Below are positions 9,968-24,613 of a stretch of 25,745 nt of DNA, piece after piece. Within the stretch, counting starts at the first letter, position 1; the number at the start of each line of letters is the position of its first letter. The translations under genes and the position numbers were made by a program. The DNA comes from Elusimicrobiota bacterium (GTDB lineage Bacteria > Elusimicrobiota > Elusimicrobia > Elusimicrobiales > UBA9959), in NCBI GenBank assembly GCA_036574205.1, contig JAINCQ010000031.1, positions 1-25,745 of the forward strand, written 5' to 3'. The notes under the pieces were generated by a model. It saw nothing but the letters and a program-made list of their open reading frames with translations, did no database searches and was not told where the DNA came from.

Positions 9968-10897
9968 ATGAAAGGAGTTAAAATTATAATTACAATATTT
10001 TTATTAAGATTTCCTTTTGTTTGTTTTGCGGGAGAAGGAACTACTACCGCAAATTTTTTAAAGTTTTCTTATTCTGCCAGGCAATCCTCGCTTGCTGGGG
10101 CTTATAGCGCTATTGGAGATGATTCAAATGCTATTTTTTCAAATCCTGCTGGAATAATAGATGCTGAAAATAAACAACTTGGGGTTGGCTTTGTAAATTA
10201 TTTATTAGATTCAAAGTCAGGATTTATCTCATATAAAACCCAGGCCAAAAATTCTGATATTGCATTTGGAGTTATTGGATTTGAGGTGGATTCCATTGAC
10301 AAAAGAACAAAGGATTATGAAGGGATTGTTCCTTCAGAAGGGAGTTTTAATTCTACTGATATGTCTTTTTTATTTGCGTATGCAAAAAAAGATTTTGCAT
10401 CATCTTTGCTTGATAATTTAAATGCCGGATTTGTTTTTAAGTTTATAAACTCAAAGATAGATTCTTCAAGCGCCCAGTCAATAGCTTTTGACCTTGGTTT
10501 TTTGTATAGATATTCCAGTAATATAAATATTTCTTTTGTTCTTTCAAATCTTGGAACAAAAATGAAATATGAGCAGGAAAGTGATAATATACCTTTGAGT
10601 TTAAAGGCTGGGTTTTTATATAAGATAGATAAAAAAGCCAATATTGTTGCTGAGGTTGAAGAGTTTATTTACGACGAAAAATTCTATCCATCTATTGGAG
10701 CGGAATGGTATTTAAAAGAAAGTTTTGTTTTAAGAGGGGGTTATAGGTTTGGATATGATACATCAAATTTAGGGAGTATGGTAGGATTTGCCGCTGGTTT
10801 TGGAATAATAACAAAAGAGGTTGGTTTTAACTATGCGTATGTCCCATTTGGCGATCTTGGAAATATAAATAGATTTGATATACAGTTAAAATTTTAA
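9968..10897 (+). CDS. PorV/PorQ-family (UPF0164-like) outer-membrane protein
   Basis: Signal peptide; N-terminal FLKFSYSARQSSLAGAYSAIGDDSNAIFSNPAG matches the PorV pattern FL....AR..(G/S)..A..A..D..A...NPA; ends YAYVPFGDLGNINRFDIQLKF. Confidence 0.85.
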   Translation: MKGVKIIITIFLLRFPFVCFAGEGTTTANFLKFSYSARQSSLAGAYSAIGDDSNAIFSNPAGIIDAENKQLGVGFVNYLLDSKSGFISYKTQAKNSDIAFGVIGFEVDSIDKRTKDYEGIVPSEGSFNSTDMSFLFAYAKKDFASSLLDNLNAGFVFKFINSKIDSSSAQSIAFDLGFLYRYSSNINISFVLSNLGTKMKYEQESDNIPLSLKAGFLYKIDKKANIVAEVEEFIYDEKFYPSIGAEWYLKESFVLRGGYRFGYDTSNLGSMVGFAAGFGIITKEVGFNYAYVPFGDLGNINRFDIQLKF

Positions 10898-11115
10898 TTT
10901 TTTAATCTTTGTAGGACTTTTATTCCACTTATTGTTAGGTCAAACTTAATTGAAAAGCAAATATTAATCTTTTAAAATATAATCGGAGGTGTGTTATGAA
11001 AAAATATTTTTTGACAGTATTAAGTGTGTTTTTGACTCTCAGTCTTTATTCTCAAATAGAGGAAGTAGAAATTAGCCAATAAAGGAAACTGAGATTTTAA
11101 ATCCTTCTCCAAAGC
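10651..11115 (+). repeat. 465-bp direct repeat, copy 1 (porV 3' end, intergenic, signal-peptide leader)
   Basis: Matches 12220-12684 (offset 1569) with 6 substitutions and no indels by manual comparison. Confidence 0.97.
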
Positions 11116-11675
11116 CTTCAATTGCAAGAAAAGAAACTAGTTATTTGAGTTTAAATAGGTCAATAAAAAACACTATAAGCCGTTGTGAAAGGGAGAAGAA
11201 AAATCCGATAATAATAGAAAATCTCAAAAAACTATTTATTTATGGAACTTTTGAAGAAAAGATGGATTTTATAAATTCTACTTCTTATGTATTTCCTAAG
11301 AGATTTACTAACTTAGAGCTCAAAGATGGGTTATTGTTGGAGTCTACAAAAGGCCAACTGCAGGTATGTGAGGAAACGAATTGTAGGGTGGTAGAAGACT
11401 GTGCTATTAAGAAAAGATGTGAAGTTGTTACTGGATGTTTGTGTAGCGGGATTATAGGACTTATAGGAGTTTACGTTTGTAAAGATCCTGTAATTGGATT
11501 TATAGGAAGCGCTGCTAGTGATCCAATTTGTACCCTTGTAGAGGAAGAAGTTTGTGAAGATGTAAAAGAATGTGATAATGTGTTAAAATGTGATACTATT
11601 TGTCACTGGGAAAATAGTAGTGATATACAACATGGAGAATGTGTTAATACTCCCTATGGAATGCTTTGTCAATAG
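10996..11675 (+). pseudogene. Secreted Cys-rich protein, frameshifted after the signal peptide (cargo ORF 11145..11675)
   Basis: GGAGG + ATG 10996 gives MKKYFLTVLSVFLTLSLYSQIEEVEISQ* (stop 11080-11082). The -1 frame from 11076 continues PIKETEILNPSPKPSIARKETSY into the 15-Cys ORF. Confidence 0.7.
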
Positions 11676-11690
11676 TTTAGAGGAGAAATT

Positions 11691-11918
11691 ATGAATATTA
11701 TCAAAAGGTTACATAACGATAAAGAATTTAATCATCCTTTTGTTCGTATGAGTAGTATGTGGTTAACAGGAATCTTTCTAATTTTTTATCTAAAACCATC
11801 TGAGAAATATGGTTATTTGAAAGGATTCTTCATAGCACTTATTGTAGCACCATTACCTTATTTTTTATGTATGTTTATTCTTGGAGGTTTATATAAAATA
11901 GTTAAACGGTTGAGATAA
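11691..11918 (+). CDS. Small two-TM membrane protein (75 aa), candidate immunity protein
   Basis: SD GAGGAG, 15 nt after the Cys-rich ORF; two hydrophobic segments; basic C-terminus. Confidence 0.7.
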   Translation: MNIIKRLHNDKEFNHPFVRMSSMWLTGIFLIFYLKPSEKYGYLKGFFIALIVAPLPYFLCMFILGGLYKIVKRLR

Positions 11919-11980
11919 AAGAATATCTTTTGTAGTCGATAAAGTGGAGGTAAACTGCGGGTTTAAGAAATATGGGTAGC

Positions 11981-12219
11981 AAAACCGTTAAACACTTTTA
12001 CCGGTATTTTAATCTGGATGTGTCATTTAACTTGTTTTAATCTCTTTTATCCTTTCTTCTAATATTTTACCCAAATACGTTCATTTTGGGAAAAATCTTT
12101 GTATAAGTCTGTTGATATTCTCTATCGTCCCTTTCTAACTATGATACGGCAAAATATCAAAAACATATTAGACAGATTTAAGAACAAGAAATTACAGAAT
12201 GATACTTGTAGATTATTTG
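11981..12219. repeat. Degenerate relative of the dispersed intergenic element at 13270-13345 and 20285-20495
   Basis: AAAACCGTTAAACACTTTT and TGTCATTTAA..GTTTTAA are shared with 20285-20357; CAAAATATCA.AAACATATT.G..AGATTT is shared with 13270-13299. Confidence 0.65.
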
Positions 12220-12466
12220 TGAGGTTGAAGAGTTTATTTACGACGAAAAATTCTATCCATCTATTGGAGCGAAATGGTATTTAAAAGAAAGTTTTGTTTT
12301 AAGAGGGGGTTATAGGTTTGGATATGATACATCAAATTTAGGGAGTATGGTAGGATTTGCCGCTGGATTTGGAATAATAACAAAAGAGGTTGGTTTTAAC
12401 TATGCGTATGTCCCATTTGGCGATCTTGGAAATATAAATAGATTTGATATTCAGTTAAAATTTTAA
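12220..12466 (+). pseudogene. Duplicated 3' fragment of the porV-like gene (about 81 codons)
   Basis: Encodes EVEEFIYDEKFYPSIGAKWYLKES...DIQLKF*; one E>K change; no start codon. Confidence 0.85.
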
Positions 12467-12684
12467 TTTTTTAATCTTTGTAGGACTTTTATCCCACTTA
12501 TTGTTAGGTCAAACTTAATTGAAAAGCAAATATAAATCTTTTAAAATATAATCGGAGGTATGTTATGAAAAAATATTTTTTGACAGTATTAAGTGTGTTT
12601 TTGACTCTCAGTCTTTATTCTCAAATAGAGGAAGTAGAAATTAGCCAATAAAGGAAACTGAGATTTTAAATCCTTCTCCAAAGC
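12220..12684 (+). repeat. 465-bp direct repeat, copy 2
   Basis: Near-identical to 10651-11115. Confidence 0.97.
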
Positions 12685-13226
12685 TATCTATAGATTTGAA
12701 ATACTCTCAAAAAGCCTATACAAACATATGGATGAATGTTTATTTTAATGAATCTATAAAAGAGATAAGTGGCTATGATTATTCAAAAAGAATAGAGGTA
12801 AATCTAAGGAAGGCTTTTGAAGGAGAGTTTAATGGGAGCGTAAATGTGGAGAATAAATTTGAATGGATTAATATAAGAAAATTTGGCGATTCAATCAGTT
12901 TTTCAAATGCTTCTGGAAATCTAAATGCTAATAAATGGGGGGACAATTATTCCATAAGTGGAAACATAAAAGGCGAGGATGGAAAATATAAGTATATAAG
13001 TCTTACAGTATATAAAAGATTTTCAGATGAATTTTCTTTTGCTATAAATTCATATGGTATAAATATCTATTTTGATAAGTATTCTGTAAATGGTAATTTT
13101 GATGAAACGCTATATTCCAAAAAAACTATTGCTTATATAACATCAATGATTTTTGCAATAGAAATAGACTCAATAAAAAGCAATAAAGCAAATATCCAAA
13201 TAAAAGAAAATTATCTTTTAAACTAA
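12565..13226 (+). pseudogene. Secreted beta-rich hypothetical protein, same frameshift after the signal peptide (cargo ORF 12696..13226)
   Basis: Identical 28-aa leader from ATG 12565 to TAA 12651; the -1 frame gives PIKETEILNPSPK then LSIDLKYSQKAY..., an unrelated Cys-free cargo. Confidence 0.7.
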
Positions 13227-13447
13227 ACTCAATTATTGAGATCTGCTATTAATAATTTGTTTTTTATTGCAAAATATCAGAAACATATTGGGTAGATTTT
13301 TAAGGCCGCTGGAGCCGTGAAATAATATTTGTAAATCTATTGAAAAGTGTGTAATAAAAAATAGATATATCTCCCATAACGAATTGACCGGCTCGGTCAG
13401 CCTGACGCTCACTTTAGGGGTGCTCAAATTGTCCCTTCCTCTTAAAT

Positions 13448-13656
13448 CTCCTCACTCTGACCCTCTCCAAAAAAGGAGGGGGAAATTTGTGTAACAGGAA
13501 GATAGATGCTCTTTAGAATTGAAAATAGCATAAACAAGTGTTAAAATCCCTTCCCCCTTGATGGGGGAAGGTGAAGGATGAGGGTGAAAAATTAAATCAC
13601 TTTGCTGACACTTGTTTCCCTCTCCCTTGATGGGAAAGGATTAAGGTGAGGGTGAA
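13448..13656. repeat. Cluster of three BoxC/REP-like palindromic repeats
   Basis: 13448-13482 CTCCTCACTCTGACCCTCTCC-AAAAAA-GGAGGGGG, facing two opposite-orientation units at 13547-13588 and 13617-13656 ending TGAGGGTGAA. Confidence 0.8.
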
Positions 13657-13672
13657 ACTCATAAGAAGTCCA

Positions 13673-13731: not shown

Positions 13732-13768
13732 TTGACATAACAGTTTAGTATTTGCTAAACTACTAAAT
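13732..13768 (+). promoter_or_regulatory. Sigma70 promoter (probably leaderless) overlapped by an inverted-repeat operator
   Basis: TTGACA 13732-13737, 18 bp, TGn-TAAACT 13756-13761, ATG 7 nt later, no SD; IRs AGTTTAGTA/TGCTAAACT (13742-13761) and TTTAGTA-N10-TACTAAA (13744-13767). Confidence 0.7.
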
Positions 13769-14083
13769 ATGAAAGTAAAAAAAGATATCTTTGAAAAAGC
13801 AAAAAAAATATCCAGGATTTTAGATTGCATTTCTTCCCCTATCAGATTAATGATTTTATGTATGCTTATAGAAGGAGAAAAAAATGTAAGTGAAATACTT
13901 GAAAAAATAGGCACTACTAAAGGAAATATGTCACAACATTTAAGGATTCTTACTGAAAATGCATTGCTTGATAATAGGAGAGAGGGAAACAAAGTATTTT
14001 ATTTTATAAAAGATAAAAAGATTACAAGAATACTTTCTGAAATAAAAAATCTTTATTGCCCTGACTTAAATTTTGATTTATAG
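13769..14083 (+). CDS. ArsR/SmtB-family repressor of the persulfide-sensing BigR/SqrR/YgaV type
   Basis: wHTH with SQHL; both signature cysteines present (RLMILCML and KNLYCP), as in YgaV RLLILCML...KNVYCP. Confidence 0.88.
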   Translation: MKVKKDIFEKAKKISRILDCISSPIRLMILCMLIEGEKNVSEILEKIGTTKGNMSQHLRILTENALLDNRREGNKVFYFIKDKKITRILSEIKNLYCPDLNFDL

Positions 14084-14086
14084 TAA

Positions 14087-14105
14087 CAGGTTTTCATAAA
14101 ACCTG
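14087..14105. promoter_or_regulatory. Perfect 8-3-8 inverted repeat between regulator and tusA
   Basis: CAGGTTTT-CAT-AAAACCTG directly before the tusA SD AGGAGG; no U-tract follows. Confidence 0.4.
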
Positions 14106-14120
14106 AGAGAAGGAGGAAAA

Positions 14121-14366
14121 ATGGATCTTAATTCAATAAAGCCAGCAAAAGTTGTTGATGCCAGAAGTATGGCCTGTCCCGGACCTCTTCTTGAAGCTAA
14201 GAAAGGTATAGCGCTTGTTAAAGTTGGAGAAGTGCTTGAAATACAATCAGGTGATAAGGGTTCAAGAGAAGATATTCCCGCATGGTGTTCAAAAACAGGA
14301 CATGAATATTTAGGCTATATTGAAAGAGATGGATATGATAGCCTATATGTTCTGAGAAAAAAATGA
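14121..14366 (+). CDS. tusA: TusA/SirA-family sulfur carrier protein
   Basis: VDARSMACPGP (CPxP), GEVLEI..D.GS..DIPAWC..TGH; 81 aa. Confidence 0.93.
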   Translation: MDLNSIKPAKVVDARSMACPGPLLEAKKGIALVKVGEVLEIQSGDKGSREDIPAWCSKTGHEYLGYIERDGYDSLYVLRKK

Positions 14367-14403
14367 TATAACATGGATGAATACTTATTTGTCATAAATT
14401 TTT

Positions 14404-14787
14404 ATGTCTGAAAAAAAACCCAAAATACTTATTATAACTACAAATCATAGCTCCTATCCTGGGGCAAATGCCGTAGGACAGGCCCGTCTTTCATATGACT
14501 CAAATACTTATATAATAAGAGTTCCTGACCCGGTAATGTTTCCTGAAAATTTCTATATAAAAGCTTTTGAAAAAGGAATATCAGGAATAATAATAATGTC
14601 CAGTGGGTCTGACTGTCCTTATGAGGGAGCATATGAAAGATTATCTAGAAGAGTGCAAAATGTATATAAACTTATGAAAGAGAAAAATATACCTATTAAT
14701 AGACTTAAGTTGACTACAATTTGTACTGTTTGTAGAGAGGCCTTCTTAAAAGAAATTTCTGATATGCAAAAGGTGGTATTTCAATGA
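14404..14787 (+). CDS. MvhD/FlpD-like (hydrogenase iron-sulfur subunit delta) protein, divergent
   Basis: SYPGANAVGQARLSY...IIRVP...AFEKGISGII...DCPY...RLKL follows the MvhD pattern; most ligand Cys replaced; CTVC near the C-terminus. Confidence 0.8.
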   Translation: MSEKKPKILIITTNHSSYPGANAVGQARLSYDSNTYIIRVPDPVMFPENFYIKAFEKGISGIIIMSSGSDCPYEGAYERLSRRVQNVYKLMKEKNIPINRLKLTTICTVCREAFLKEISDMQKVVFQ

Positions 14788-16079
14788 AAGAAAAAATAGA
14801 ATATAACTGTGACGCTCTTGTAATAGGAGCTGGTATAGCAGGGATGCAGGCCGCTCTTGATATAGGTGATGCTGGATTTGATGTGATTATGGTTGAAAAG
14901 TCTCCCAGTATAGGCGGAAAGATGATATCTTTAAGCAAGGTCTTTCCTACTCTTGATTGCGCAAGCTGTATTACAACGCCAAAAATGGCTGCTTCTTCAC
15001 ACCATCCAAGAGTTAAAATGATGACTTATAGCGAAGTTAAAAATATTTCAAAAAACTCTGAAGGTTTTGAAGCTTTGATAATTAAAAAACCAAGATTTGT
15101 TATAGAAAGCGAATGTATATCTTGCAAAAAATGCGAGGAAGCCTGTCCAGTTTATCTCACGGATGAATTTGAATATGGTCTTGGTGTTAAAAAAGCTATT
15201 TCTATTCCTTTCACAAATGCGATACCTCAAATTCCAGTTTTAGATGAGCAAAAATGTATAAGATGTGGGGCTTGCGCAAGAGTGTGTCCAAAGGATTGTA
15301 TAGATTACTTGCAAAAACCGCAAGAAATAATTGTAAAGGCTAAATCAGTAATAATAGCAACTGGCTATGAAATAACTCCTATGAATGCCAAAAAAGAATA
15401 TGGGGAAAATAAATTATTAAATGTAATATCGCCTCTTCAAGCAGAAAGATTACTTGCCCCGCATGGACCATATGGTAAAGTGTTAAGACCATCTGATGGT
15501 AAAATACCTGATTCAATTGCTTATGTTCAGTGCGCTGGTTCAAGAGATGAAAGTATAGGTATACCATATTGTTCAAGAGTTTGTTGTATGTATGCTATAA
15601 AACAGGCTATGTTACTTGCAGGTGCTTTGCCGTTAAGCGAAATTACTATTTACTATATGGATATAAGAGCTTTTGGGAAGAATTATGAGCAGTTTTATAA
15701 TCAAGCCCGCGCTATGGGGATAAATTTTGTAAAAGCAAAAGTGGCTAAAATAACCGAAGATAGTCAGCATAATGTAATATTGAGGATAGATAGACAGGAG
15801 GATGGTTCAAAACCTCAGGAGGTTAAGCATGATCTTGTGGTCCTTTCACAAGGTCTTATTCCTTCAAGAAAAGATTTTTTTGGCCTTGACTTAAAACTTA
15901 ATGAATATGGTTTTATAGATTCTCCTTTTAAAACTTCTTCTCCGTCTTTAACAAATATTGAAGGTGTTTTTGTGGCAGGAGTAGCATCAGGACCTAAAGA
16001 TATACCAGATACTATAATGGAGGCTGGTTCAGCAGCGATGGAGGCAGTAAATTATCTTAAATCAGTTAAAACTTCTTGA
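14784..16079 (+). CDS. hdrA: HdrA-like flavoprotein I (FAD domain with inserted 2x[4Fe-4S] ferredoxin)
   Basis: GAGIAG FAD motif, KVFPTLDCASC, CISCKKCEEACP, CIRCGACARVCP, QCAGSRD...YCSRVCC, GPKDIP. Confidence 0.93.
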   Translation: MKEKIEYNCDALVIGAGIAGMQAALDIGDAGFDVIMVEKSPSIGGKMISLSKVFPTLDCASCITTPKMAASSHHPRVKMMTYSEVKNISKNSEGFEALIIKKPRFVIESECISCKKCEEACPVYLTDEFEYGLGVKKAISIPFTNAIPQIPVLDEQKCIRCGACARVCPKDCIDYLQKPQEIIVKAKSVIIATGYEITPMNAKKEYGENKLLNVISPLQAERLLAPHGPYGKVLRPSDGKIPDSIAYVQCAGSRDESIGIPYCSRVCCMYAIKQAMLLAGALPLSEITIYYMDIRAFGKNYEQFYNQARAMGINFVKAKVAKITEDSQHNVILRIDRQEDGSKPQEVKHDLVVLSQGLIPSRKDFFGLDLKLNEYGFIDSPFKTSSPSLTNIEGVFVAGVASGPKDIPDTIMEAGSAAMEAVNYLKSVKTS

Positions 16080-16091
16080 TAAGAGGGTAAA

Positions 16092-17897
16092 ATGTCAGAG
16101 GAAAATAAAGAAGAAAATTTAATAAATGAGACTTATAGACAAAAGCCAAAAGTGGCTGTTTATGTATGTCACTGTGGCGGAAATATTTCAGATGTAATAG
16201 ATGTTAAAAAAGTTGCAAAAGAATTGTCTTCTTATCCTAATGTGGCTATATCCAGAGAATATGCTTTTATGTGTTCTTCAACAGGACAGGATTTTATTGT
16301 TGAGGATATAAAAAAACATGGAATAAACAGAGTTGTCATAGCTGCTTGTTCTCCATACCTTCATGAACTTACTTTCAGGGGAGCGCTTAATAGAGCAGGA
16401 CTTAATCCATATTTATATGAGCATGTCAACATAAGAGAACAGGCAAGTTGGGTTCATAAAAATGACAAAGAAGGAGCTACTCTTAAGGCTATAGCTCTTA
16501 TAAAAGCCGGAGTGGAAAAAGTCATAAGACAGGATCCGCTAAACTCTATAAGAGTAGAAGCTTTGCATTCAGTGGCTATAATAGGAGCAGGAATAGCCGG
16601 GTTAAAAGCGGCAATAAGTTGTGCTGAAAATGGTCTTGATGTAACTATAATAGAAAAAAGTTCATTTATAGGTGGTAAATTGAATAGAAGAGGTCCTGTG
16701 TATCCTACCGGAGAAAAATCAGTTGATGTGGTTGAAAATCTTTCAAAAAAAGCTCTTAGTATGAAGAATGTAAAAATATATACTGAGGCTGAGATATCTT
16801 TTATAGGAGGATATGTTGGTAATTTTCAGCTTAATGTTAAAAAATCTGATGGGAGTTTTGAAAAAGTAAAAGCTGGGGCTATAATAATAGCCACAGGTTT
16901 TGATTTTTATAAACCTTTAGACGGGGAATATGGATGGGGAAAAAGTCCATTTATTTTGACATTGCCACAATTTAATGAATTGCTTGAGAAGAACACAGGT
17001 TCAGAACTTGAAATTGAAGGTAAAAAAATCAAATCGGCTACCTTTATTCATTGTGTTGGCTCAAGGCAGATAAATGGAATAGATAAACCTGGCAAAAACG
17101 GGAAAGTTAATGAATATTGTTCCAGAATATGCTGTACAGCGATAATACATTCAGCTAACAGACTTAAAGAAAAATTTCCGAATATTGAAGTTTTTGACAT
17201 ATACACAGATATGCGAACTTATGGAATGGACCATGAAAAATATTATAAGAATGCTTCAAAAAATGACATAATATTTTTTAGACGTCCCCTTGAAGAAAGA
17301 CCTGTAGTAGATATAGGAAAAGATTCAATAATTGTAAAAACAAAAGATGTGTTAACAATGAATGAGGAAATGGAAATAGAAACTGATCTCCTTATACTTG
17401 GCACAGGTATTGTTCCAAATGATATAAGCGATATTGTAGAATACTTAAAGTTGCCTGTAGGATCAGATGGCTTTTTACAGGAAGTCCATCCAAAGTTAAG
17501 GCCTGTTGAAGTGGCAAATAATGGAATTTTTTTAGCTGGAACTGCACAAGGACCTATGGATATAATAGAAACTTTACAGGCAGCTAATACTGCAGCTGTT
17601 AAAGCTGCTGCATTGCTTAGTTCCGCTGATATACCGCTGGATCCTTTTGTTGCTGTTGTAGATGAAGATAAATGTACTGGTTGTGCTATTTGCCCTGCTG
17701 AATGTTCTTATGAAGGTGCTCTTACAATGGCTGAAAAAGAAGTTAAAGGCAAAAAGAAAAAGGTTGCTGTTGTAAATCCTGCTCTTTGTAAAGGATGCGG
17801 TGCATGTGTTGCTGTTTGTCAGCCACGCGCAATAAATCTGGCAGGATGGACTCTGGATCAGTTTGAGGCTATGGTTGAAGCTATAGCGAAGGACTAA
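16092..17897 (+). CDS. hdrA: HdrA-like flavoprotein II (N-terminal Fe-S domain, FAD domain, C-terminal ferredoxin)
   Basis: VCHCGGNI, FMCS, AACSP, NIREQ; GAGIAG; HCVGSR...YCSRICC; EVHPKLRPV; CTGCAICPAEC and CKGCGACVAVC. Confidence 0.93.
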   Translation: MSEENKEENLINETYRQKPKVAVYVCHCGGNISDVIDVKKVAKELSSYPNVAISREYAFMCSSTGQDFIVEDIKKHGINRVVIAACSPYLHELTFRGALNRAGLNPYLYEHVNIREQASWVHKNDKEGATLKAIALIKAGVEKVIRQDPLNSIRVEALHSVAIIGAGIAGLKAAISCAENGLDVTIIEKSSFIGGKLNRRGPVYPTGEKSVDVVENLSKKALSMKNVKIYTEAEISFIGGYVGNFQLNVKKSDGSFEKVKAGAIIIATGFDFYKPLDGEYGWGKSPFILTLPQFNELLEKNTGSELEIEGKKIKSATFIHCVGSRQINGIDKPGKNGKVNEYCSRICCTAIIHSANRLKEKFPNIEVFDIYTDMRTYGMDHEKYYKNASKNDIIFFRRPLEERPVVDIGKDSIIVKTKDVLTMNEEMEIETDLLILGTGIVPNDISDIVEYLKLPVGSDGFLQEVHPKLRPVEVANNGIFLAGTAQGPMDIIETLQAANTAAVKAAALLSSADIPLDPFVAVVDEDKCTGCAICPAECSYEGALTMAEKEVKGKKKKVAVVNPALCKGCGACVAVCQPRAINLAGWTLDQFEAMVEAIAKD

Positions 17898-17901
17898 TCT
17901 T

Positions 17902-18192
17902 ATGGAAGATAAAAATAAAAAAATAAATGAACAATTAAAGACACTTAATGAAACTAAAGGTCCTGTAAGTAAAACCTTGCTTGAATATAATAGGGAAAAT
18001 ATTTCAAAACAGAATAAAATTATTAAAGTTTTAAAGGATGGAGAAAAAACAATTCCAGAAATAGCTTCATTAACAGGGCTTTCTTCTAAGGAAGTGTTGT
18101 TTCATGTTACAGGACTTGTAAAATACGGAAAAGTTTCCGTTATAACAGCTAAAACAGGATATATGAAATATAAACTTGTGGAGAAAGAATGA
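17902..18192 (+). CDS. Small winged-HTH-like protein inside the hdr-like operon
   Basis: IIKVLKDGEKTIPEIASLTGLSSKEVLFHVTGLVKYGKV; ATGA overlap with the next gene. Confidence 0.75.
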   Translation: MEDKNKKINEQLKTLNETKGPVSKTLLEYNRENISKQNKIIKVLKDGEKTIPEIASLTGLSSKEVLFHVTGLVKYGKVSVITAKTGYMKYKLVEKE

Positions 18193-19256
18193 GAGTAAAT
18201 ACAAGATTTATAAAGGAAATTAAAAAATATGGTGCTTTTGATATATCGGCATGCTTTAATTGTGGAAATTGTACAGCAGTATGCCCTCTAAGCGCTGAAG
18301 ATTTATCGTTCCCAAGAAAAATGATACGCTACGCACAGATAGGTGCAGAGAAAGAAATAGAGGCTTTGCTTGAGCCATGGATGTGTTATTATTGCGGAGA
18401 ATGTTCAGACACCTGTCCAAGACAGGCATATCCAGGTGAGTTTATGATGAGCTTAAGACGCTATCTTATCTCAAAATATGATGTTACTGGTATATCTTCA
18501 TTTTTTTATAAATTTCCATGGGTTCAGAACTTGTTAACAATAGCCATTTTCGCTTTGTCTTTTACTATTTTTCTCAACTATAAAGGAGACTTTCAGGAAT
18601 TAGCTTCAAAAATAGAGATAGCTTTTCCTGTATATGTAAGCTTTGCTATATTTGCTTATGTTTTTACATTTTACAGAAAAACAATATTTGAAAAATATAG
18701 AAAATTTATTTTTTCTTTTGATTTTTCAAATATAAAAGAGACTTTATTACACGCATTTACGCAAAAAAACTTTATTTCATGTTCAGATAAAGATTTAACA
18801 AGATGGATAGCTCATCTATTGGTTATGAGTGGATATACTCTTACCCTTTTGATTTCTAATTTACATTTATTAGAACCTCTTAAATTTCATTATAAATTTT
18901 TTGATATAAGAACTTTCCTGGTTTTTTATGCTGGTTTTGCCATTTTATTTGGCGGTTTTGTTATGATGTTTAGGCGTGTGGTTAAAAAGGTACAATCTTC
19001 TTCATTTTCTCATTCAACAGACTGGCTTTTTGTGATAATGCTTTTTCTTATAGGTTTTAGCACCCTTGCCACACATACTGCAAATATATTTTTAGGGCCT
19101 GAATCTTTGTTAGTCTCATTATTGTATAAGTTAAATATAGCTATTGAAATAGCATGGATAATTATCGTTGTTCCTTTTACAAAATGGATACATATTTTTT
19201 TCAGACCTATGGCTATATATTTAAGAAATCTTAAAAGAGAGAAAAATTTAGCATAA
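18189..19256 (+). CDS. QmoC-like protein: HdrC-type 2x[4Fe-4S] domain fused to a NarI/HdrE-type cytochrome b membrane domain
   Basis: CFNCGNCTAVCP, CYYCGECSDTCPRQAYPGE; several TM helices; RWIAH and PFTKWIH..RP motifs. Confidence 0.87.
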   Translation: MRVNTRFIKEIKKYGAFDISACFNCGNCTAVCPLSAEDLSFPRKMIRYAQIGAEKEIEALLEPWMCYYCGECSDTCPRQAYPGEFMMSLRRYLISKYDVTGISSFFYKFPWVQNLLTIAIFALSFTIFLNYKGDFQELASKIEIAFPVYVSFAIFAYVFTFYRKTIFEKYRKFIFSFDFSNIKETLLHAFTQKNFISCSDKDLTRWIAHLLVMSGYTLTLLISNLHLLEPLKFHYKFFDIRTFLVFYAGFAILFGGFVMMFRRVVKKVQSSSFSHSTDWLFVIMLFLIGFSTLATHTANIFLGPESLLVSLLYKLNIAIEIAWIIIVVPFTKWIHIFFRPMAIYLRNLKREKNLA

Positions 19257-19274
19257 TAAAGGAAGGGGGATAAT

Positions 19275-19829
19275 ATGGCTGACATTAATGAGCTTGAAAA
19301 AAAAATTAATGAACTTAAAAGCGAAATTGAAGCATTAAAAGCTAATGCACCAAAAGATCAGCTTTCAATGGTTGTCATGAGCGGAGATTTAGATAAGTTA
19401 CTTGCGGCTTTTGTAATTGCCACAGGTGCTGCAGCTATGTATGAGAGAGTTGTAATGTTCTTCACTTTATGGGCTATACCGTTTTTGAAAGATCCAAACA
19501 AAAAGGTTCCAAAAGATATAATTTCAAAGGCTTTTGAAATAATGTTACCACAAAATACTAAAGGTCTTAAACTTTCCAGGATGAATATGATGGGATTAGG
19601 CCCTGTTATGATAAAGGGACTTATGAAAAAGTATAATGTAAAAACTCTTGGAGATCTGCTTAAACTTGCTGAAGAAATGGGAAATGTTGAAATATATATA
19701 TGTCAGATGTCAATGGATTTAATGGGATATAAATGGGAAGAGATGATAAATTATCCTAATATGAAATCAGCAGGAGTTGCTAAATTCGTGGCTGAAGCAG
19801 GACAAAGCAAGGCTACACTTTTTATTTAA
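19275..19829 (+). CDS. DsrE2-type (DsrE/DsrF/DrsH-like) sulfur transfer protein
   Basis: SGDLDK..AAFVIATGAAAM...MFFTLW...ICQMSMDLMG...GVAKF...ATLFI. Confidence 0.9.
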   Translation: MADINELEKKINELKSEIEALKANAPKDQLSMVVMSGDLDKLLAAFVIATGAAAMYERVVMFFTLWAIPFLKDPNKKVPKDIISKAFEIMLPQNTKGLKLSRMNMMGLGPVMIKGLMKKYNVKTLGDLLKLAEEMGNVEIYICQMSMDLMGYKWEEMINYPNMKSAGVAKFVAEAGQSKATLFI

Positions 19830-19839
19830 AGAGGCAAAA

Positions 19840-20214
19840 ATGGAGAACAATGAAAGTAAGGAAAAAATAGTTTATGTAGTAACACATGCAGAAGATAATC
19901 CAGAGAAGGCTATAATACCATTTGTCTTAGCAAATGGAGCTATGGCAATGGATGTTGAAGTTTCTATAATACTTCAAAGTAATGGAGTGCTTTTAGCTAA
20001 AAAAGGCTATGCTGAAAAGATAAATCATACATATTTTGATCCTCTAAAAAAATTGATGGATCAATATATTCAATCAGGCGGAAAAATATATTTATGTGCT
20101 CCATGTGTTAAAGCAAGAAATATGGAAAATGATATTATAGAAGGTGCTGTAATAATTGGAGCTGCTAAAGTAGTTCAGGAAGCACTTAGCGCAAAAGTAG
20201 TTTTTACATATTAG
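19840..20214 (+). CDS. DsrE-family protein
   Basis: GAGG then ATG 19840 (preferred to 19777); TH.EDNPEKA..PF.LANGA.AMD...GGKIYLCAPC..AR. Confidence 0.88.
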   Translation: MENNESKEKIVYVVTHAEDNPEKAIIPFVLANGAMAMDVEVSIILQSNGVLLAKKGYAEKINHTYFDPLKKLMDQYIQSGGKIYLCAPCVKARNMENDIIEGAVIIGAAKVVQEALSAKVVFTY

Positions 20215-20605
20215 TTTTCTTATCTAATTGCTAAAATAATTTAAAAAATTTTGCATAATTGATAGATTCAAAGAGTAAGGACAAAAAACCGTTAAACACT
20301 TTTGTTAGTGTTTTAAAACATAGATATTTTTTGCTTTGTCATTTAATCAGGTTTTAACTTCTTTCTTATTATACGCCAGATATCTCTGTTTTGTTACTCT
20401 GGTGTTTTAAACTTATGTGTCACTAAAACTACATTATTGGACAGATCTTTAAGGATGTTGAGCCGTAGAATAATATTTGTAAATCTATTGAAAAATACGT
20501 TTAAACACCAGACTGATTGGCCCCGTTGTCTAAGATATTTTGCTTTCAAAACAACATCCACTAATTTTACACGGCCGTAGTTAAACTGTGGATAATTGTT
20601 TTTTT

Positions 20606-20632
20606 GGTTTTACCTTCCGGGACGGTAAAACC
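20606..20632. other. Stem-loop GGTTTTACC-TTCCGGGAC-GGTAAAACC, possible minus-strand terminator
   Basis: 9-bp perfect stem; the T-run is on its 5' side on +, so it is not a canonical + terminator. Function uncertain. Confidence 0.3.
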
Positions 20633-20650
20633 GTCCTTCCCCCCTTAAAT

Positions 20651-20809
20651 CTCCTCACCCTAACCCTCTCCAAAAAAGGAGAGGGGATATGTATAGCAAG
20701 GAGATGAACATTGAAAAAAAATAAATGAGTAATAAGATCCCTTCCCCCTTGATGGGGGAAGGTGAAGGATGAGGGTGAAGAAATGGGAGAGGATTAAGGT
20801 GAGGGTGAA
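20651..20809. repeat. Second cluster of BoxC/REP-like palindromes, paralogous to 13448-13656
   Basis: CTCCTCACCCTAACCCTCTCC-AAAAAA-GGAGAGGGG 20651-20686; 43 bp at 20737-20779 identical to 13546-13588; half unit 20783-20809. Confidence 0.8.
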
Positions 20810-21046
20810 AAGAAGAGAGGGGACATAGCAGTTAAACCATCACGGAAGGTAATATTCATCACATAGAGTTTGAATGATGGGTTTATGGATTATATCTTAT
20901 AGTATTGAAAAACACCATAAATAATTGAATCGGAAAAACACCAATAAATTGGTTTTTAGATGAACAATTTAAAAATCATAAAAAGTCCAATCTACCTGTG
21001 CATGTCTTCTGCACGCAGAAGATATGTATAGATATCTTACATTTAT

Positions 21047-21084
21047 TTGACAGACATTTGGTTATTTGGTAAAATGTTCAAATA
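21047..21084 (+). promoter_or_regulatory. Sigma70 promoter (near-leaderless) with ArsR-type operator
   Basis: TTGACA 21047-21052, 17 bp, TGn-TAAAAT 21070-21075, ATG at 21084 with no SD; IR TATTTG-N10-CAAATA 21063-21084. Confidence 0.7.
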
Positions 21085-21371
21085 TGGATAGATTTAAAAA
21101 AGAGTATTATGTCAAAGAGGCTAATATATTAAAGGCATTGTCTCATCCAACAAGACTTTTAATTATAGATATGATTCAGAATAAAGAGTTTTGTGTATGC
21201 GAGTTACAGCAAAAAATAGGGGATGATATCTCAACTGTTTCAAAACATCTTTCGGTGCTTAAAAACGCTGGACTTGTCAATACTAAAAGGAAAGGTAAAT
21301 GGATTTATTATACTCTTACCTTTCCCTGTATAGTAAATTTTTTAAGATGTATTAAAGGAGTAGTAAAATGA
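21084..21371 (+). CDS. arsR: ArsR/SmtB-family metal(loid)-responsive repressor
   Basis: LKALSHPTRL, alpha3 site FCVCEL, STVSKHLSVLKNAGLV; start moved to ATG 21084 because TTG 21066 lies inside the promoter. Confidence 0.9.
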   Translation: MDRFKKEYYVKEANILKALSHPTRLLIIDMIQNKEFCVCELQQKIGDDISTVSKHLSVLKNAGLVNTKRKGKWIYYTLTFPCIVNFLRCIKGVVK

Positions 21372-22666
21372 GCTTAAAAGAGGAAAGGAAAACGTTGATT
21401 TTATTTGTTATTGTTTTCTTTGCTTTATACTTTCTTCCTGTATCCTCCATACGATTTAAGAATGCTATAATGGAGGCTTTTGAGCTTACAAAATGGTATA
21501 CACGCGAACATATTCTTCTATGTCTTGTCCCGGCTCTTTTTATAGCGGGTGGAATATCAGTTTTTGTTTCTCAAGCATCCGTGATGAGATATTTTGGAGC
21601 AGGAGCAAATAAAATTCTTTCTTATGGGGTTGCATCTGTATCTGGCACAATGCTTGCAGTTTGTTCCTGTACTGTTTTGCCGCTTTTTGCGGGGATATAT
21701 AAAAGGGGAGCGGGAATTGGACCTGCTATTGCTTTTTTATATTCTGGGCCCGCTATAAATGTTCTTGCCATAGTTTTAACTGCTAGAATACTTGGTTTTG
21801 AAATGGGGCTGGCGAGAGCAATTGGCGCTATTATTTTTAGCCTTGTCATTGGTATCTCAATGCATTTTATTTTCATAAAAGAGGAAAAACAAAAAATTGA
21901 AAATCAGATAAACATGCAGGTTCCTTCTTTACAAAGACCTTTATGGCAAAACATTCTTTATTTTGCTTCTATGGTTTTTATTTTAGTCTTTGCCAACTGG
22001 AGTAAAGGGGATAATACAGAAGGATTTTTTTATTTAATTTACCGCTTAAAATGGGTTTTGACTTCCATCTCAGCTATTTTTCTGGGGTTTATTTTAATTA
22101 TATGGTTTGGCGCAAATAAAAAGAAAATTATAATTTCTTCAGTAATTGTTTTTATATTGTCTATTTTATTCAGTGATATGCCTGTTATTGCTTTTTCTGC
22201 AGGTTTTATAGGGCTTTCCTGGGCAATATCAAATGATGATGGAGAATTGGGGGATTGGCTTTCTGCAAGTTGGGATCTTGCGAAACAAATATTTCCGCTT
22301 TTAATTGCTGGAGTATTTGTTTCTGGTTTTCTTTTAGGAAGGCCGCAAAATGAAGGAATCATACCTTCTAATTGGGTCAGGTGGGCTGTTGGTGGAAATT
22401 CATTTGGAGCTAATTTCTTTTCTTCTATTGTTGGGGCTTTTATGTATTTTGCAACTTTAACTGAAGTTCCAATACTTCAGGGGCTTATAGGAAGTGGAAT
22501 GGGAAAAGGCCCGGCGCTTGCAATGCTTTTAGCAGGACCGGCGCTTTCTCTTCCAAGCATGCTTGTTCTTAAAAGCATTATGGGAACAAAGAAAACAATA
22601 ATTTATGTTTTACTTGTTGTTATAATGTCAACTATTACCGGGATGTTTTATGGCGCATTTTTTTAA
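21368..22666 (+). CDS. ArsP/DUF318-family permease
   Basis: Polytopic membrane protein with LAVCSCTVLPLF, FLYSGPAINV, YFATLTEVPI, LLAGPALSLP motifs; ATGA-coupled to arsR. Confidence 0.9.
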   Translation: MSLKEERKTLILFVIVFFALYFLPVSSIRFKNAIMEAFELTKWYTREHILLCLVPALFIAGGISVFVSQASVMRYFGAGANKILSYGVASVSGTMLAVCSCTVLPLFAGIYKRGAGIGPAIAFLYSGPAINVLAIVLTARILGFEMGLARAIGAIIFSLVIGISMHFIFIKEEKQKIENQINMQVPSLQRPLWQNILYFASMVFILVFANWSKGDNTEGFFYLIYRLKWVLTSISAIFLGFILIIWFGANKKKIIISSVIVFILSILFSDMPVIAFSAGFIGLSWAISNDDGELGDWLSASWDLAKQIFPLLIAGVFVSGFLLGRPQNEGIIPSNWVRWAVGGNSFGANFFSSIVGAFMYFATLTEVPILQGLIGSGMGKGPALAMLLAGPALSLPSMLVLKSIMGTKKTIIYVLLVVIMSTITGMFYGAFF

Positions 22667-22675
22667 GGAGGTATT

Positions 22676-22915
22676 ATGAAAAAAATACAAATACTTGGCA
22701 TGGGATGTCCAAAATGCAAGAAATTGTATGAAACTGCTGAAATGGCGGCAAGAGAATTAGGGATAGAATATGAGATGGAAAAAATAACTGATATAAACAA
22801 AATAACGGAGATGGGTGTGATGATTACTCCGGCTTTAGCTATAAACGGCGAAGTGAAACTTGCTGGTAAACTGCCAACTGGTGAAGAACTAAAAAAAATT
22901 TTAAAAGATAATTAA
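22676..22915 (+). CDS. Small thioredoxin-like redox-active disulfide protein (MTH895/TM0996 type)
   Basis: ILGMGCPKC, GVMITPALAING; SD AAGGAGG. Confidence 0.92.
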   Translation: MKKIQILGMGCPKCKKLYETAEMAARELGIEYEMEKITDINKITEMGVMITPALAINGEVKLAGKLPTGEELKKILKDN

Positions 22916-22920
22916 AAAAT

Positions 22921-23286
22921 ATGCCAGAACAATGTGATTGTTGCACTAAAACAATGATTGTTCTGTCATGTTCCGGCGCCTCAGATGTGGGTGAACTGGC
23001 AGATAGAGCCGCGCGGATGCTATCACAAAAAACAAAGATAAAAATGGGTTGTCTTGCCGGTATAGGGGGGAATATAAGCGGTTTTATAGCATCTGCAAAT
23101 GGGGCTGATATTGTTATAGCCATAGATGGTTGTTCAGTTTCATGCGCCAAAAAGACTCTGGAAACTCATGGTATCAAAAAGTTCAATCATCTGAAAGTTA
23201 CAGACTGCGGCTTTGAAAAAGGCGATGCTTTAGTTACTAAGAAAAATATTGAAAGGATTTTCAGATATGCAAAAAAACTTATCTAA
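22921..23286 (+). CDS. DGC-domain (putative zinc-binding) protein
   Basis: CSGASDVG, MGCLAGIG, AIDGCSVSCAKK. Confidence 0.9.
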   Translation: MPEQCDCCTKTMIVLSCSGASDVGELADRAARMLSQKTKIKMGCLAGIGGNISGFIASANGADIVIAIDGCSVSCAKKTLETHGIKKFNHLKVTDCGFEKGDALVTKKNIERIFRYAKKLI

Positions 23287-23887
23287 ATCCAAGTCTAAAA
23301 ATCAACTAAAGATGGTAAAAATTTTTCTTATATGCTTTGTAATATTAAGTATATTAATTGGGGTTTACAAAGCAATTAAGTCACCATGTTGTGATGTAGA
23401 AAATAGTGATATATTATCATCAGATAAGGAAAGCGTAGTGCAGATTACATCCAGTTCAGAATCTGTCCTGAAATCGTCAGCTTTTGCTGATAAGACTGAA
23501 GCAAAATCTAAAGCAGATAGCGCTTCATCCAACTTACAGGCAAAAAAGACAAAAAAAGCAATAGTCTATTACTTTTACACTAGTATTCGTTGTTATTCAT
23601 GCACTCTTATTGAAAATTATATCAGGGAGGCTGTGGAACAAAATTTCAATAAACCATATAATGGCTGGATTGTTGAATTTAAAGGTGTGAATGTAGAGCT
23701 TGGTGAAAACCGTCATTTTATAAAAGATTATTGGCTTAATTCAAAATCTGTAGTTGTACAAAAATTTGAAGATCAAAAACTACTGGAATGGATTATATTA
23801 AAAGATGTTTGGCTATTATTAGGGAATAAGTCATTGTTTATTAATTATGTCAATAATGAAATTAAGAAGTTTTTGGATAAGGAATGA
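23267..23887 (+). CDS. Membrane-anchored extracytoplasmic thioredoxin-like protein (ArsF-family-like)
   Basis: N-terminal TM anchor, Ser/Lys linker, VYYFYTSIRCYSC..IE motif; AAAGGA precedes ATG 23267. Confidence 0.75.
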   Translation: MQKNLSKSKSKNQLKMVKIFLICFVILSILIGVYKAIKSPCCDVENSDILSSDKESVVQITSSSESVLKSSAFADKTEAKSKADSASSNLQAKKTKKAIVYYFYTSIRCYSCTLIENYIREAVEQNFNKPYNGWIVEFKGVNVELGENRHFIKDYWLNSKSVVVQKFEDQKLLEWIILKDVWLLLGNKSLFINYVNNEIKKFLDKE

Positions 23888-24576
23888 ACTTTGAATTTTT
23901 GGCTGTATCATTAACAGCTATATGGACAGGAATACTTACAGCAATAAGTCCATGTCCGCTTGGGACTAATATAGCTGCCTTGTCTTATATTTCAAAACAT
24001 TGCGCATTAGGAAAATCAACAGTGCTTTTTCATAGTTTATTATATACTGCTGGTCGTGCTGTGGCATATATAGTGATAGGTTTTCTGGTTGTTAAAGGGT
24101 TGCTCTATACCCCTTCATTTTCTTTTTTAATTCAGAAATATGGCAATCAAATTCTTTCACCTTTACTTGTATTAGCAGGGATGTATATGCTTGATATGTT
24201 TAGTACCAATTTTGAAGGATTTAATATATTAAATCCTTTACGTTTTAAAACAAAAACAGGAACGATACCTTCTTTATTTATGGGAATAGTGTTTGCTATG
24301 GCTTTTTGTCCTATTTCTGCTGCACTTTATTTCGGTATAATAATACCACTGGCAGTTACTAATTCCTCTCCATTTTTCATACCTTTTTTATATGGCATAG
24401 GTACTGCTTTACCGGTTACAGTGGTTGCTATTGTTATTGACTTTGGTATAAAGAAAATATCTTCAATAACTGAGATTGCTGCCAGGGTTGAAAAATATGC
24501 TAAAGCAGTAACTGGATGGATATTTATCATTGCAGGTATTTATCTTGCTCTAAAATATATATTTGAGATAGTTTAA
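23884..24576 (+). CDS. CcdA/DsbD-TM-like membrane protein (ArsG-family-like)
   Basis: About 6 TM; TAISPCPLGTN and AMAFCPISAALYFG cysteine pair; YGIGTALPV. Confidence 0.85.
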   Translation: MNFEFLAVSLTAIWTGILTAISPCPLGTNIAALSYISKHCALGKSTVLFHSLLYTAGRAVAYIVIGFLVVKGLLYTPSFSFLIQKYGNQILSPLLVLAGMYMLDMFSTNFEGFNILNPLRFKTKTGTIPSLFMGIVFAMAFCPISAALYFGIIIPLAVTNSSPFFIPFLYGIGTALPVTVVAIVIDFGIKKISSITEIAARVEKYAKAVTGWIFIIAGIYLALKYIFEIV

Positions 24577-24613
24577 AGTTATGTTAGCAAAAAGAGAAAA
24601 TTATTCGTAAAAC

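Follow-up and report, generated by a model that had tools for sequence, protein, structure and literature searches.

Electron confurcation has been proposed for the membrane complex QmoABC acting together with AprAB, the adenosine 5'-phosphosulfate (APS) reductase. A second kind of the complex, 'type II' Qmo, which occurs with or without Apr/Dsr, has been described by Neukirchen et al. (2023; PMC10504309); the accessible part of that paper assigns it no role and names two examples, Ammonifex degensii and 'Ca. Vulcanisaeta moutnovskia', both of them sulfate reducers. The accessible parts of this and four further papers (PMC13490349, PMC12142623, PMC13293266, PMC4911364) are concerned with canonical Qmo, the YTD cluster or DsrEFH. 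In the literature searched (subscription-journal reviews on HdrA modules lie outside it), we found no description of a Qmo-like cluster linked to TusA and DsrE; as far as the available text goes, only the general remark on type II Qmo (PMC10504309) is already in print. Here, we report the analysis of such a cluster in a 25,745-nucleotide stretch of DNA from an Elusimicrobiota bacterium (contig JAINCQ010000031.1 of assembly GCA_036574205.1), the whole of which is hereafter called the window. The cluster encodes a two-cysteine repressor, the sulfur carrier TusA, an MvhD-like protein, two HdrA-like flavoproteins (HdrA1 and HdrA2), a small winged helix-turn-helix (wHTH) protein, a QmoC-like membrane subunit, a DsrE2-like protein and a DsrE-family protein. 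The window is one member of a widespread, uncharacterised family of Qmo/Hdr variants. On what seems the likeliest reading, we tentatively regard the operon as encoding a complex of the HdrA-like 'type II' Qmo kind, self-regulated and induced by sulfane sulfur, that is linked to quinone and ferredoxin and reduces persulfide bound to the carriers. To what is in print we add an inventory of the host genome, the paralogy with canonical Qmo within one genome, a conserved candidate operator, a quantified synteny and, in the MvhD-like subunit, a switch of cysteines specific to the sulfur-linked form.

An earlier note on this DNA, made from the window alone, had placed the nine genes in one operon, and all nine open reading frames (ORFs) were found where it put them, on the + strand at 13769-20214. 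The intergenic gaps are, in order, 37, 37, -4, 12, 4, -4, 18 and 10 nt; since none exceeds 37 nt and two junctions are translationally coupled through 4-nt overlaps, the genes form one operon. Families were assigned to the ORFs by Pfam and NCBIfam profile searches. The operon lies on contig C22 of a host genome of 1.85 Mb (43 contigs, 95.3% complete), whose nearest relatives by locus are Elusimicrobium and other Elusimicrobia metagenome-assembled genomes (MAGs). It is the only TusA/DsrE/HdrA/MvhD/QmoC set of that genome, and tblastn searches of the host genome with the nine proteins gave no paralogue, apart from another ArsR encoded in the window and one weak match to a ferredoxin.

The association of sulfur carriers with the redox complex is conserved well beyond the window. 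Query patterns taken from the window's QmoC-like protein, which favour near relatives, retrieved 65 loci from species-representative genomes; one locus without a QmoC ORF and 15 truncated loci were dropped before the count, and the 49 kept have at least 4.6 kb upstream and at least 1.5 kb downstream. Both tusA and a dsrE-family gene are retained in 43 of these 49 judgeable loci, so that they are conserved neighbours; five loci have neither and one has DsrE only. An MvhD-like gene and a wHTH gene are each present in 42 of the 43 sulfur-type loci and an ArsR homologue in 33, while the dsrE-family content varies (DsrE2 only in 25, DsrE only in eight, both in ten). The 43 loci, spread over at least five phyla, belong to Elusimicrobiota, Desulfobacterales/Desulfobacteraceae, Krumholzibacteria, Thermoleophilia and a Myxococcota-labelled MAG. 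A truncated Heimdallarchaeota (Asgard) locus has the same parts. Within Elusimicrobiota the distribution is patchy, with the cluster in four of 201 sampled genomes including the host, all of one family. Neither aprA nor dsrA was found in the four other cluster-bearing Elusimicrobia assemblies, which represent three distinct genomes (G005 and G059 are apparently the same).

The loci that lack TusA and DsrE are informative about the position that these carriers occupy. In Holophagae the order is hdrA-mvhG-mvhA-hdrA-wHTH-qmoC, in Bacteroidota hdrA-qmoC-hdrA-mvhD-mvhG-mvhA-hycI, and a NuoEF-linked sister form reads qmoC-nuoE-nuoF-hdrA-mvhD. Because these sister clusters carry MvhAG or NuoEF instead, TusA/DsrE fill the slot of the redox partner; and since the Mvh and Nuo forms are interleaved with sulfur-linked ones in the QmoC tree, partner modules have been exchanged more than once. 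The earlier note had supposed that similar clusters may exist in other anaerobes; far from standing alone, the cluster is part of a large family that crosses phyla and whose HdrA/membrane core is found with MvhAG hydrogenase or NuoEF as well. Three individual loci deserve mention in their own right. A complete TusA-linked cluster in a Rectinemataceae/Spirochaetota-labelled MAG (L029) falls inside the Elusimicrobia clade of the QmoC tree, with 58% identity to the window, which reflects either a recent transfer or a mis-binned contig. A class-V aminotransferase gene, cysteine-desulfurase-like, lies upstream of a Krumholzibacteria cluster (L050:490-1953), and a rhodanese-TusA fusion is encoded in the Heimdallarchaeota locus (L044:5149-5940).

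The MvhD-like protein (127 aa, 14404-14787) is the subunit in which sulfur-linked and other forms differ. It scores 67 bits against FlpD/MvhD (PF02662; cut-off 22.3), and its AlphaFold2 (AF2) model, with a predicted local distance difference test (pLDDT) score of 81, matches MvhD of 5odc_D with a template-modelling (TM) score of 0.81. The name 'mvhD-like' given in the earlier note is therefore apt for family and fold, but the protein is not a classical MvhD, as its cysteine ligands are rewired. The classical cysteines that mark the cluster-bearing MvhDs, namely a CxxC near the N-terminus, one Cys following strand 2 and a CxCx4C motif, occur in the Mvh-/Nuo-linked proteins and in the solved MvhDs. 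Only the last of them (C71) is retained here, and a new pair, C107-x-x-C110, is gained after strand 4. This CxxC is present in 43/43 sulfur-linked versus 0/6 Mvh-/Nuo-linked MvhD-like proteins, and neither position is a Cys in the solved MvhDs. The MvhD-like tail of QmoB was matched in 30/30 canonical loci, with a C-terminal CxxC in none of the six alignments inspected. An exhaustive profile search of 1.84 billion representatives returned 1748 MvhD-like relatives at E <= 1e-3. The best 150 of these comprise 97 partial and 53 full-domain sequences; among the latter, 14 have the C-terminal CxxC without the N-terminal Cys pair (11 of them with C71), 36 are classical, three have neither pattern and none has both.

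No comparable signature was found elsewhere in the complex. Sulfur-specific cysteines were sought in HdrA1, HdrA2 and QmoC, and none was found, the cluster cysteines being equally kept in the other forms; by these alignments, the CxxC of the MvhD-like protein is the sole feature of the complex that appears specific to the sulfur-linked type. Because this CxxC is sulfur-specific and the carrier cysteines are invariant, we infer that sulfur chemistry would take place at the MvhD-like cysteine site (C71/CxxC).

The carriers themselves are well-supported family members. TusA (81 aa, 14121-14366) has its Cys19 in a CPGP motif and scores 69 bits against Pfam TusA (cut-off 28.6); C19 is invariant in 45/45 sequences and in a further alignment (A2), and YedF/selenium models (NCBIfam) are also matched weakly, below the TusA model. 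The DsrE2-like protein (184 aa, 19275-19829; PF13686, Pfam DrsE_2, E = 1.6e-39) has an N-terminal coiled-coil-like extension. Its best PDB match is 3pnx (6e-24) with the Cys aligned, and this residue, C143, is present in 42/42 sequences; against the NCBIfam DsrE2 equivalog it reaches 48 bits and misses the cut-off of 210. For the DsrE-family protein (124 aa, 19840-20214; Pfam DsrE, E = 1.6e-17), the best PDB match is 3mc3 (5.6e-11) with the first Cys aligned, and both cysteines of its CxxC (C107 and C110 of DsrE) are kept in 23/23 sequences. The start of dsrE is ambiguous: ATG 19840 was used, and the alternative TTG 19777 would overlap dsrE2. Taken with the synteny, these features suggest that the complex has as its redox partner not APS reductase but persulfide bound to TusA and DsrE/DsrE2; the carriers would then contact the complex physically. 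In a complex prediction for the MvhD-like protein and TusA, each entered as an alignment, the score was 0.01 against a mark of 0.32, which is neutral on binding.

The QmoC-like subunit (355 aa, 18189-19256) separates the complex from canonical Qmo. Its N-terminus is HdrC-like with 2x[4Fe-4S], and the PDB matches to HdrC cover this part only; the membrane domain is NarI/HdrE-like, with ~5-6 hydrophobic segments by hydropathy and a NarI-like match just below the cut-off. Across the QmoC-type rows, eight cluster cysteines, C198, H209 and H335 are invariant (93/93), and H275 is present in 54/54 sulfur-linked rows. The earlier note had left room for subunits belonging to the true QmoABC clade, with aprAB elsewhere in the genome. 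The protein instead scores 133 bits against the NCBIfam qmoC equivalog (NF038018), missing the cut-off of 300, compared with 426-535 bits for canonical proteins; and in a quick IQ-TREE analysis of 93 QmoC-type proteins, 30 canonical rows form one clade (SH-aLRT, the Shimodaira-Hasegawa-like approximate likelihood-ratio test, 100; branch 2.5), the window's protein sitting among the 63 non-canonical rows.

Both versions coexist in a Desulfosarcinaceae genome (G001). There, the order aprB-aprA-qmoA-qmoB-qmoC is found, with the canonical qmoC (502 bits) ~4 kb from aprA (964 bits), and a TusA-linked qmoC-like gene (190 bits, locus L042) lies ~165 kb off. Among 61 Desulfobacterales genomes, 55 have a match above the qmoC cut-off (426-535 bits at full length, and 304 for one truncated frame), and a second class of full-length matches at 186-201 bits occurs in eight of the 61, with a partial match at 118 bits. 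In seven Desulfobacterales genomes (G206, G208, G209, G215, G226, G241 and G252), second-class matches lie in frames of 710-837 aa; judging from this length, the QmoC-like domain is probably fused to something else there.

The two HdrA-like flavoproteins give a similar picture. HdrA1 (431 aa, 14784-16079, in the QmoA position) and HdrA2 (601 aa, 16092-17897, in the QmoB position) score 461 and 495 bits against the NCBIfam HdrA2 model, under its full-length cut-off of 1100. HdrA1 aligns with residues ~141-559 of solved HdrA, covering the FAD/thioredoxin-reductase-like domain and the inserted 2x[4Fe-4S] ferredoxin domain, and 15 of its cysteines are invariant. HdrA2 aligns with residues ~2-245 and 326-652; it starts with the N-terminal Fe-S domain of HdrA, goes on with an FAD domain that lacks the insert and ends in a 2x[4Fe-4S] ferredoxin domain, and no MvhD is fused to it. 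The pair look complementary, as an asymmetric version of the HdrA homodimer would be. HdrA1 scores 401 bits to solved methanogen HdrA versus 243 to canonical QmoA (G001), and HdrA2 397 versus 139 to canonical QmoB (G001); sHdrA (6tjr) is a far weaker match than methanogen HdrA for both.

The small wHTH protein (96 aa, 17902-18192) is cysteine-free and sits between hdrA2 and qmoC in a translationally coupled arrangement (4-nt gap, 4-nt overlap). Its HTH profile matches are sub-threshold, and its AF2 model is confident (pLDDT 90.5); a Foldseek search against the PDB returned only generic winged-helix repressors and Z-alpha domains, and look-alikes in the Atlas are small wHTH clusters of 92-99 aa with no function attached. 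The gene is kept in the sulfur-type loci at the frequency given above and occurs in Mvh-linked loci too; the protein could be either a structural subunit or a local regulator.

The first gene of the operon encodes an ArsR/SmtB-family repressor of the BigR/SqrR/YgaV two-Cys, persulfide-sensing type (104 aa, 13769-14083). It matches Pfam ArsR/HTH_5 and scores 74 bits against the NCBIfam metalloregulator model (cut-off 55), and its best PDB matches are BigR (3pqj, 2e-16), YgaV (3cuo) and SqrR (6o8l). The likeness to these regulators that the earlier note had pointed out extends to the individual residues: C31 and C97, the conserved pair in helix 2 and at the C-terminal helix, occupy the same alignment columns as both cysteines of all three structures. 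Of 29 homologues beside related clusters, 28 retain C31 and 24 retain C97. Upstream, the interval 13732-13767 (+ strand) holds the promoter and a candidate operator. A promoter scan placed a sigma-70-like promoter at 13732-13761 (TTGACA, 18 nt, TAAACT; 10/12 matches, with a TG extension), and a 10-nt inverted repeat (13744-13753 / 13758-13767), recovered by an inverted repeat search, overlaps it and ends 1 nt before the arsR start codon. By alignment, a 28-nt block containing the palindrome is near-invariant up to the start codon in five Elusimicrobia (the window and four relatives), with diverged flanks. The motif occurs once in the genome, the next-best sites carrying five mismatches. We read the palindrome as a candidate operator that is local and autoregulatory, and the operon would be induced by sulfane sulfur. 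A wider regulon was considered and dropped, there being no second genomic copy of the operator with fewer than five mismatches.

The inventory of the genome indicates which partners are available to the complex. The earlier note had seen no HdrB, AprAB or lipoate-binding protein in the window, and their absence extends to the 95.3%-complete genome, in which no aprA, dsrA or sat was found, nor DsrC, HdrB or LbpA. The aprA search had a positive control in G001, at the 964 bits given above. The genome's one gene with a CCG domain is no hdrB but a GlcF-like gene placed after that of a GlcD-like FAD oxidase on contig C40, and its lone GCV_H gene, lying inside gcvT-gcvH-gcvP, is no lbpA. Molybdopterin oxidoreductases and YeeE/YedE were likewise not found in this assembly. 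The statement that no hydrogenase large subunit is encoded holds for the window but not for the genome, where NiFe-type large subunits occur, none of them beside MvhD; they belong to a four-subunit group-3b-like enzyme and a group-4/complex-I-like membrane module. The group-3b ('sulfhydrogenase'-type) NiFe hydrogenase is encoded together with a HycI protease (G000:C38; L083:4470-8495, 10816-11322), and may connect NAD(P)H/H2 with the reduction of sulfur in this organism. A single rhodanese gene is present, on contig C37. NuoABCDEFGH adjoins cytochrome bd genes (CydAB; C14, L085:7549-9881), and a UbiA prenyltransferase gene stands beside a polyprenyl synthase gene. With Nuo, CydAB and UbiA the genome has a quinone-based membrane chain, so that it is plausible for the QmoC-like subunit to interact with quinone; the invariant H209 and H335 of its membrane domain fit such a link.

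These observations can be assembled into the following scheme. Persulfide or polysulfide would oxidise both cysteines of the repressor, which would then leave the palindrome at the -10 box and permit transcription, and the TusA and DsrE proteins would load sulfane sulfur as cysteine persulfides. The HdrA heterodimer would gather electrons from ferredoxin, through its ferredoxin domains, and from menaquinol, through the Fe-S/cytochrome-b QmoC-like subunit, by the same confurcation logic as that proposed for QmoABC-AprAB. Electrons would then pass to the C71/CxxC site of the MvhD-like subunit, in place of its usual [2Fe-2S] cluster, where the persulfide or disulfide of the carrier would be reduced to H2S. 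Analogies can be drawn with ferredoxin:thioredoxin reductase and the CoA-persulfide reductases. The benefit would be an anaerobic sink for quinol and ferredoxin electrons together with the removal of reactive sulfur; in a host with complex I, quinone and cytochrome bd and without Psr, Dsr and Apr, the complex would supply an anaerobic outlet. The narrower version of this scheme is a flavin-based confurcating (or bifurcating) persulfide:menaquinone/ferredoxin oxidoreductase with its S-S chemistry at the cysteine triad of a cluster-less MvhD-fold subunit, which we consider rather doubtful in so specific a form. The reductive direction of electron flow is likewise our inference. Overall, the interpretation offered in the earlier note is partly supported: wherever one of its refuting conditions could be computed, the outcome favoured it.

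Several points weigh against a persulfide reductase. Neither an HdrB-type nor any other known S-S-cleaving site was found in the complex, and the MvhD-like site is a guess from conservation; C71 itself is absent from three of the 14 CxxC-type representatives among the best 150 of the 1748 relatives. The non-sulfur groups used for comparison are small (5-9 sequences), and all 30 canonical rows of the QmoC tree come from one order. The repressor reaches 71 bits against the NCBIfam BigR equivalog and misses its cut-off of 155. The MvhD position is where flavin electrons enter in Mvh-Hdr, so that sulfur as a donor might fit at least equally well. Reduction of persulfide by menaquinol alone is uphill, and a low-potential co-donor is therefore needed, which the scheme assumes. 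Donors may also differ between lineages: the first HdrA is 849-1022 aa long in eight of the 43 sulfur-type loci, and two of the three scanned (L050, L057 and L058) carry a GltD/NfnB-type NAD(P)H module, which the window's HdrA1 lacks. Finally, HemB/ALAD was not found in the 95%-complete genome, and both the cytochrome-b domain of the QmoC-like subunit and CydAB need heme, which would have to come from import or another pathway unless the gene falls in the missing 5% of the assembly.

The most serious alternative is the same complex running in reverse, in which sulfide or carrier thiols would be oxidised to carrier persulfide at the MvhD-like site and the HdrA flavin would bifurcate electrons to menaquinone (through QmoC) and ferredoxin. 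The slot that the carriers occupy holds electron donors in the Mvh- and NuoEF-linked sisters, and in the Mvh-Hdr complexes of solved structure (5odc and relatives) electrons reach HdrA by way of MvhD. The S0/HS- midpoint, by established values, lies between those of quinone and ferredoxin, which would place the reaction near equilibrium, and the record titles of close relatives name sulfidic or groundwater metagenomes. Oxidation would nevertheless leave the host with no sulfane-sulfur sink, its genome being without Dsr, sHdr, Sox-type and molybdopterin enzymes and YeeE, and an operon derepressed by persulfide suits the consumption of sulfane sulfur better than its production. We therefore regard this direction as unlikely, though as one to be taken seriously.

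A second alternative removes sulfur from the catalytic cycle: the HdrA/QmoC core would be a ferredoxin (or NAD(P)H):quinone oxidoreductase, for which TusA and DsrE would do no more than build or repair cofactors, or regulate it. In line with this, the core is coupled to unrelated partners (Mvh, NuoEF) in the sister clusters, no sulfur-specific cysteine was found in HdrA1, HdrA2 or QmoC, and a recognisable S-S-cleaving domain is lacking. It accords poorly, however, with carrier cysteines that are invariant and carrier genes that are kept in 43/49 loci across several phyla, with MvhD-like cysteines that switch exactly where the carriers occur and with a two-Cys, persulfide-type repressor at the head of the operon. 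Moreover, since the Mvh-/Nuo-linked forms do without TusA and DsrE, the carriers are unnecessary for maturation of the core. A sulfur-free core is thus an improbable explanation.

Oxidation of carrier sulfur to sulfite in the manner of sHdr, or another chalcogen or a thiosulfonate on the carriers, is far less probable. TusA/DsrE sets and ArsR-type repressors do go with sHdr systems, according to the accessible part of PMC11094781, and the weak matches of TusA to YedF/selenium models would allow for a different chalcogen; yet there is no HdrB/CCG subunit (the lone CCG gene is GlcF-like) and no LbpA (the lone GCV_H is in gcvTHP), sHdrA (6tjr) is matched much more weakly than methanogen HdrA, and the YedF models score under the TusA model. 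The reading as an ordinary QmoABC serving APS reductase, in sulfate reduction or sulfite oxidation, shares the subunit plan of two HdrA-like flavoproteins and an HdrC/HdrE-like membrane subunit, but it is contradicted by the failure to find aprA, sat and dsrA in the 95%-complete genome, the qmoC score of 133 against 300 bits, a tree position outside the canonical clade (SH-aLRT 100), HdrA1 and HdrA2 that are nearer to methanogen HdrA than to QmoA/QmoB and the coexistence of both versions in the sulfate reducer G001, and is exceedingly unlikely.

The surroundings of the operon show several further features. A FadL/TodX-type outer-membrane channel gene lies directly 3' of the cluster in six close relatives (L003:10294-11409, L004:10081-11199, L006:10099-11271, L007:4444-5616, L010:10070-11272 and L012:9682-10899); in the window its place is taken by an 851-bp non-coding spacer after dsrE (20215-21065), and the idea of a FadL pseudogene in this spacer was dropped, as tblastn gave no trace of one. 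Repeat-rich segments flank the operon on both sides (13280-13665 and 20430-20815), and within each lies a GC-rich hairpin, CCTTCCCCC-loop-GGGGGAAGG (13549 in the first, 20740 in the second). Direct repeats of a mobile cassette specific to the operon were rejected as an explanation, because the flanking repeats are members of a family that is scattered in dozens of copies over at least 25 contigs. Downstream, a second ArsR-headed cluster (21066-25152) encodes an ArsR 32% identical to the operon repressor, an ArsP-type permease, a small Thioredoxin_3 redox protein, a DGC-domain protein, an unassigned 212-aa ORF, a DsbD_2 membrane protein and a Fur-family regulator, and may be a thiol/metal(loid) redox-export unit. 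Upstream, the final 84 codons of a 309-aa ORF (9968-10897) are repeated at 12212-12463 with 96% identity, which suggests a recent partial duplication or a gene fragment, and local rearrangement upstream of the operon. Farther upstream, a giant ORF of 2381 aa (2733-9878) contains CarboxypepD_reg, PEGA/SpaA-like and C-terminal FlgD-Ig domains; the ORFs beside it (380-2670 and 9968-13226) matched no Pfam family. A search of the entire window against Rfam gave no match. Among sequencing runs, two DNA runs matched, both from hot-spring metagenomes and one of them possibly the source, and no RNA run was listed.

Zero-valent sulfur and persulfides are plentiful in anoxic sediments, groundwater and guts. 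To our knowledge, the known cytoplasmic and membrane routes for their turnover (Psr/Sre, Dsr, sHdr and the NSR/CoA-persulfide reductases) are all missing from the host genome. The tie between TusA/DsrE and a quinone-linked HdrA complex across phyla points to an unrecognised sulfur redox route. If a persulfide reductase is indeed encoded, it would constitute a new output (or, in reverse, input) module for flavin-based electron bifurcation, and an unrecognised energy-linked respiration of zero-valent sulfur without Psr, Dsr or Sre that would be open to fermentative and other anaerobes in many phyla. If the cysteine triad acts as proposed, Hdr-type systems would have a third way of reducing disulfide or persulfide, in addition to the non-cubane clusters of HdrB and the flavin-CxxC reductases. 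Since the family occurs both in sulfate reducers that have canonical Qmo and in non-sulfate-reducers, automatic 'Qmo' or 'Hdr' labels can mislead when sulfate reduction is predicted from metagenomes. For experiment, there are two precise handles in the conserved candidate operator and the rewired MvhD-like subunit.

The operon shares individual traits with five described systems. BigR, SqrR and YgaV govern SQR, persulfide dioxygenase or rhodanese-type detoxification genes. The repressor described here resembles them in being their best PDB counterpart with both cysteines aligned, and in having a palindrome that overlaps the promoter of its own operon; it differs in that the candidate regulated genes encode an anaerobic redox complex and in missing the BigR equivalog cut-off. 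MvhADG-HdrABC and Fdh/Elp-Hdr of methanogens (5odc, 7bkb, 8rvu, 9sfi) are what HdrA1, HdrA2, the MvhD-like protein and the HdrC-like portion of QmoC match best in sequence and fold; the differences are an operon with neither HdrB nor hydrogenase, an HdrA in two complementary heterodimer halves, the replacement of the MvhD cluster cysteines and an output to a membrane cytochrome-b-type subunit. The sHdr systems likewise combine an Hdr-type flavoprotein, TusA and DsrE-family carriers under an ArsR-family regulator (PMC11094781, accessible part); here, HdrB1/B2, stand-alone HdrC1/C2, LbpA and the lipoylation genes are missing and a membrane QmoC-like subunit is present.

Canonical (type I) QmoABC, the quinone-interacting membrane-bound oxidoreductase known from sulfate reducers and green sulfur bacteria, is alike in its two HdrA-like flavoproteins, its membrane HdrC/HdrE-like subunit and its MvhD-type module. 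In the operon, however, MvhD is a separate gene with another cysteine set, a wHTH gene precedes qmoC, TusA/DsrE and a two-Cys repressor are included, and neither AprAB nor Sat is found in the genome. Type II Qmo, in the portion of its description available (PMC10504309), carries no mention of a TusA/DsrE linkage, a rewired MvhD or a repressor. By the alignments reported here the operon nevertheless matches the type II Qmo kind, being likened to its named members by description only, and the trait on which the comparison turns is shared: in type II Qmo, QmoA/B are closer to HdrA than to bacterial QmoAB (PMC10504309), as are HdrA1 and HdrA2 here (401/397 versus 243/139 bits).

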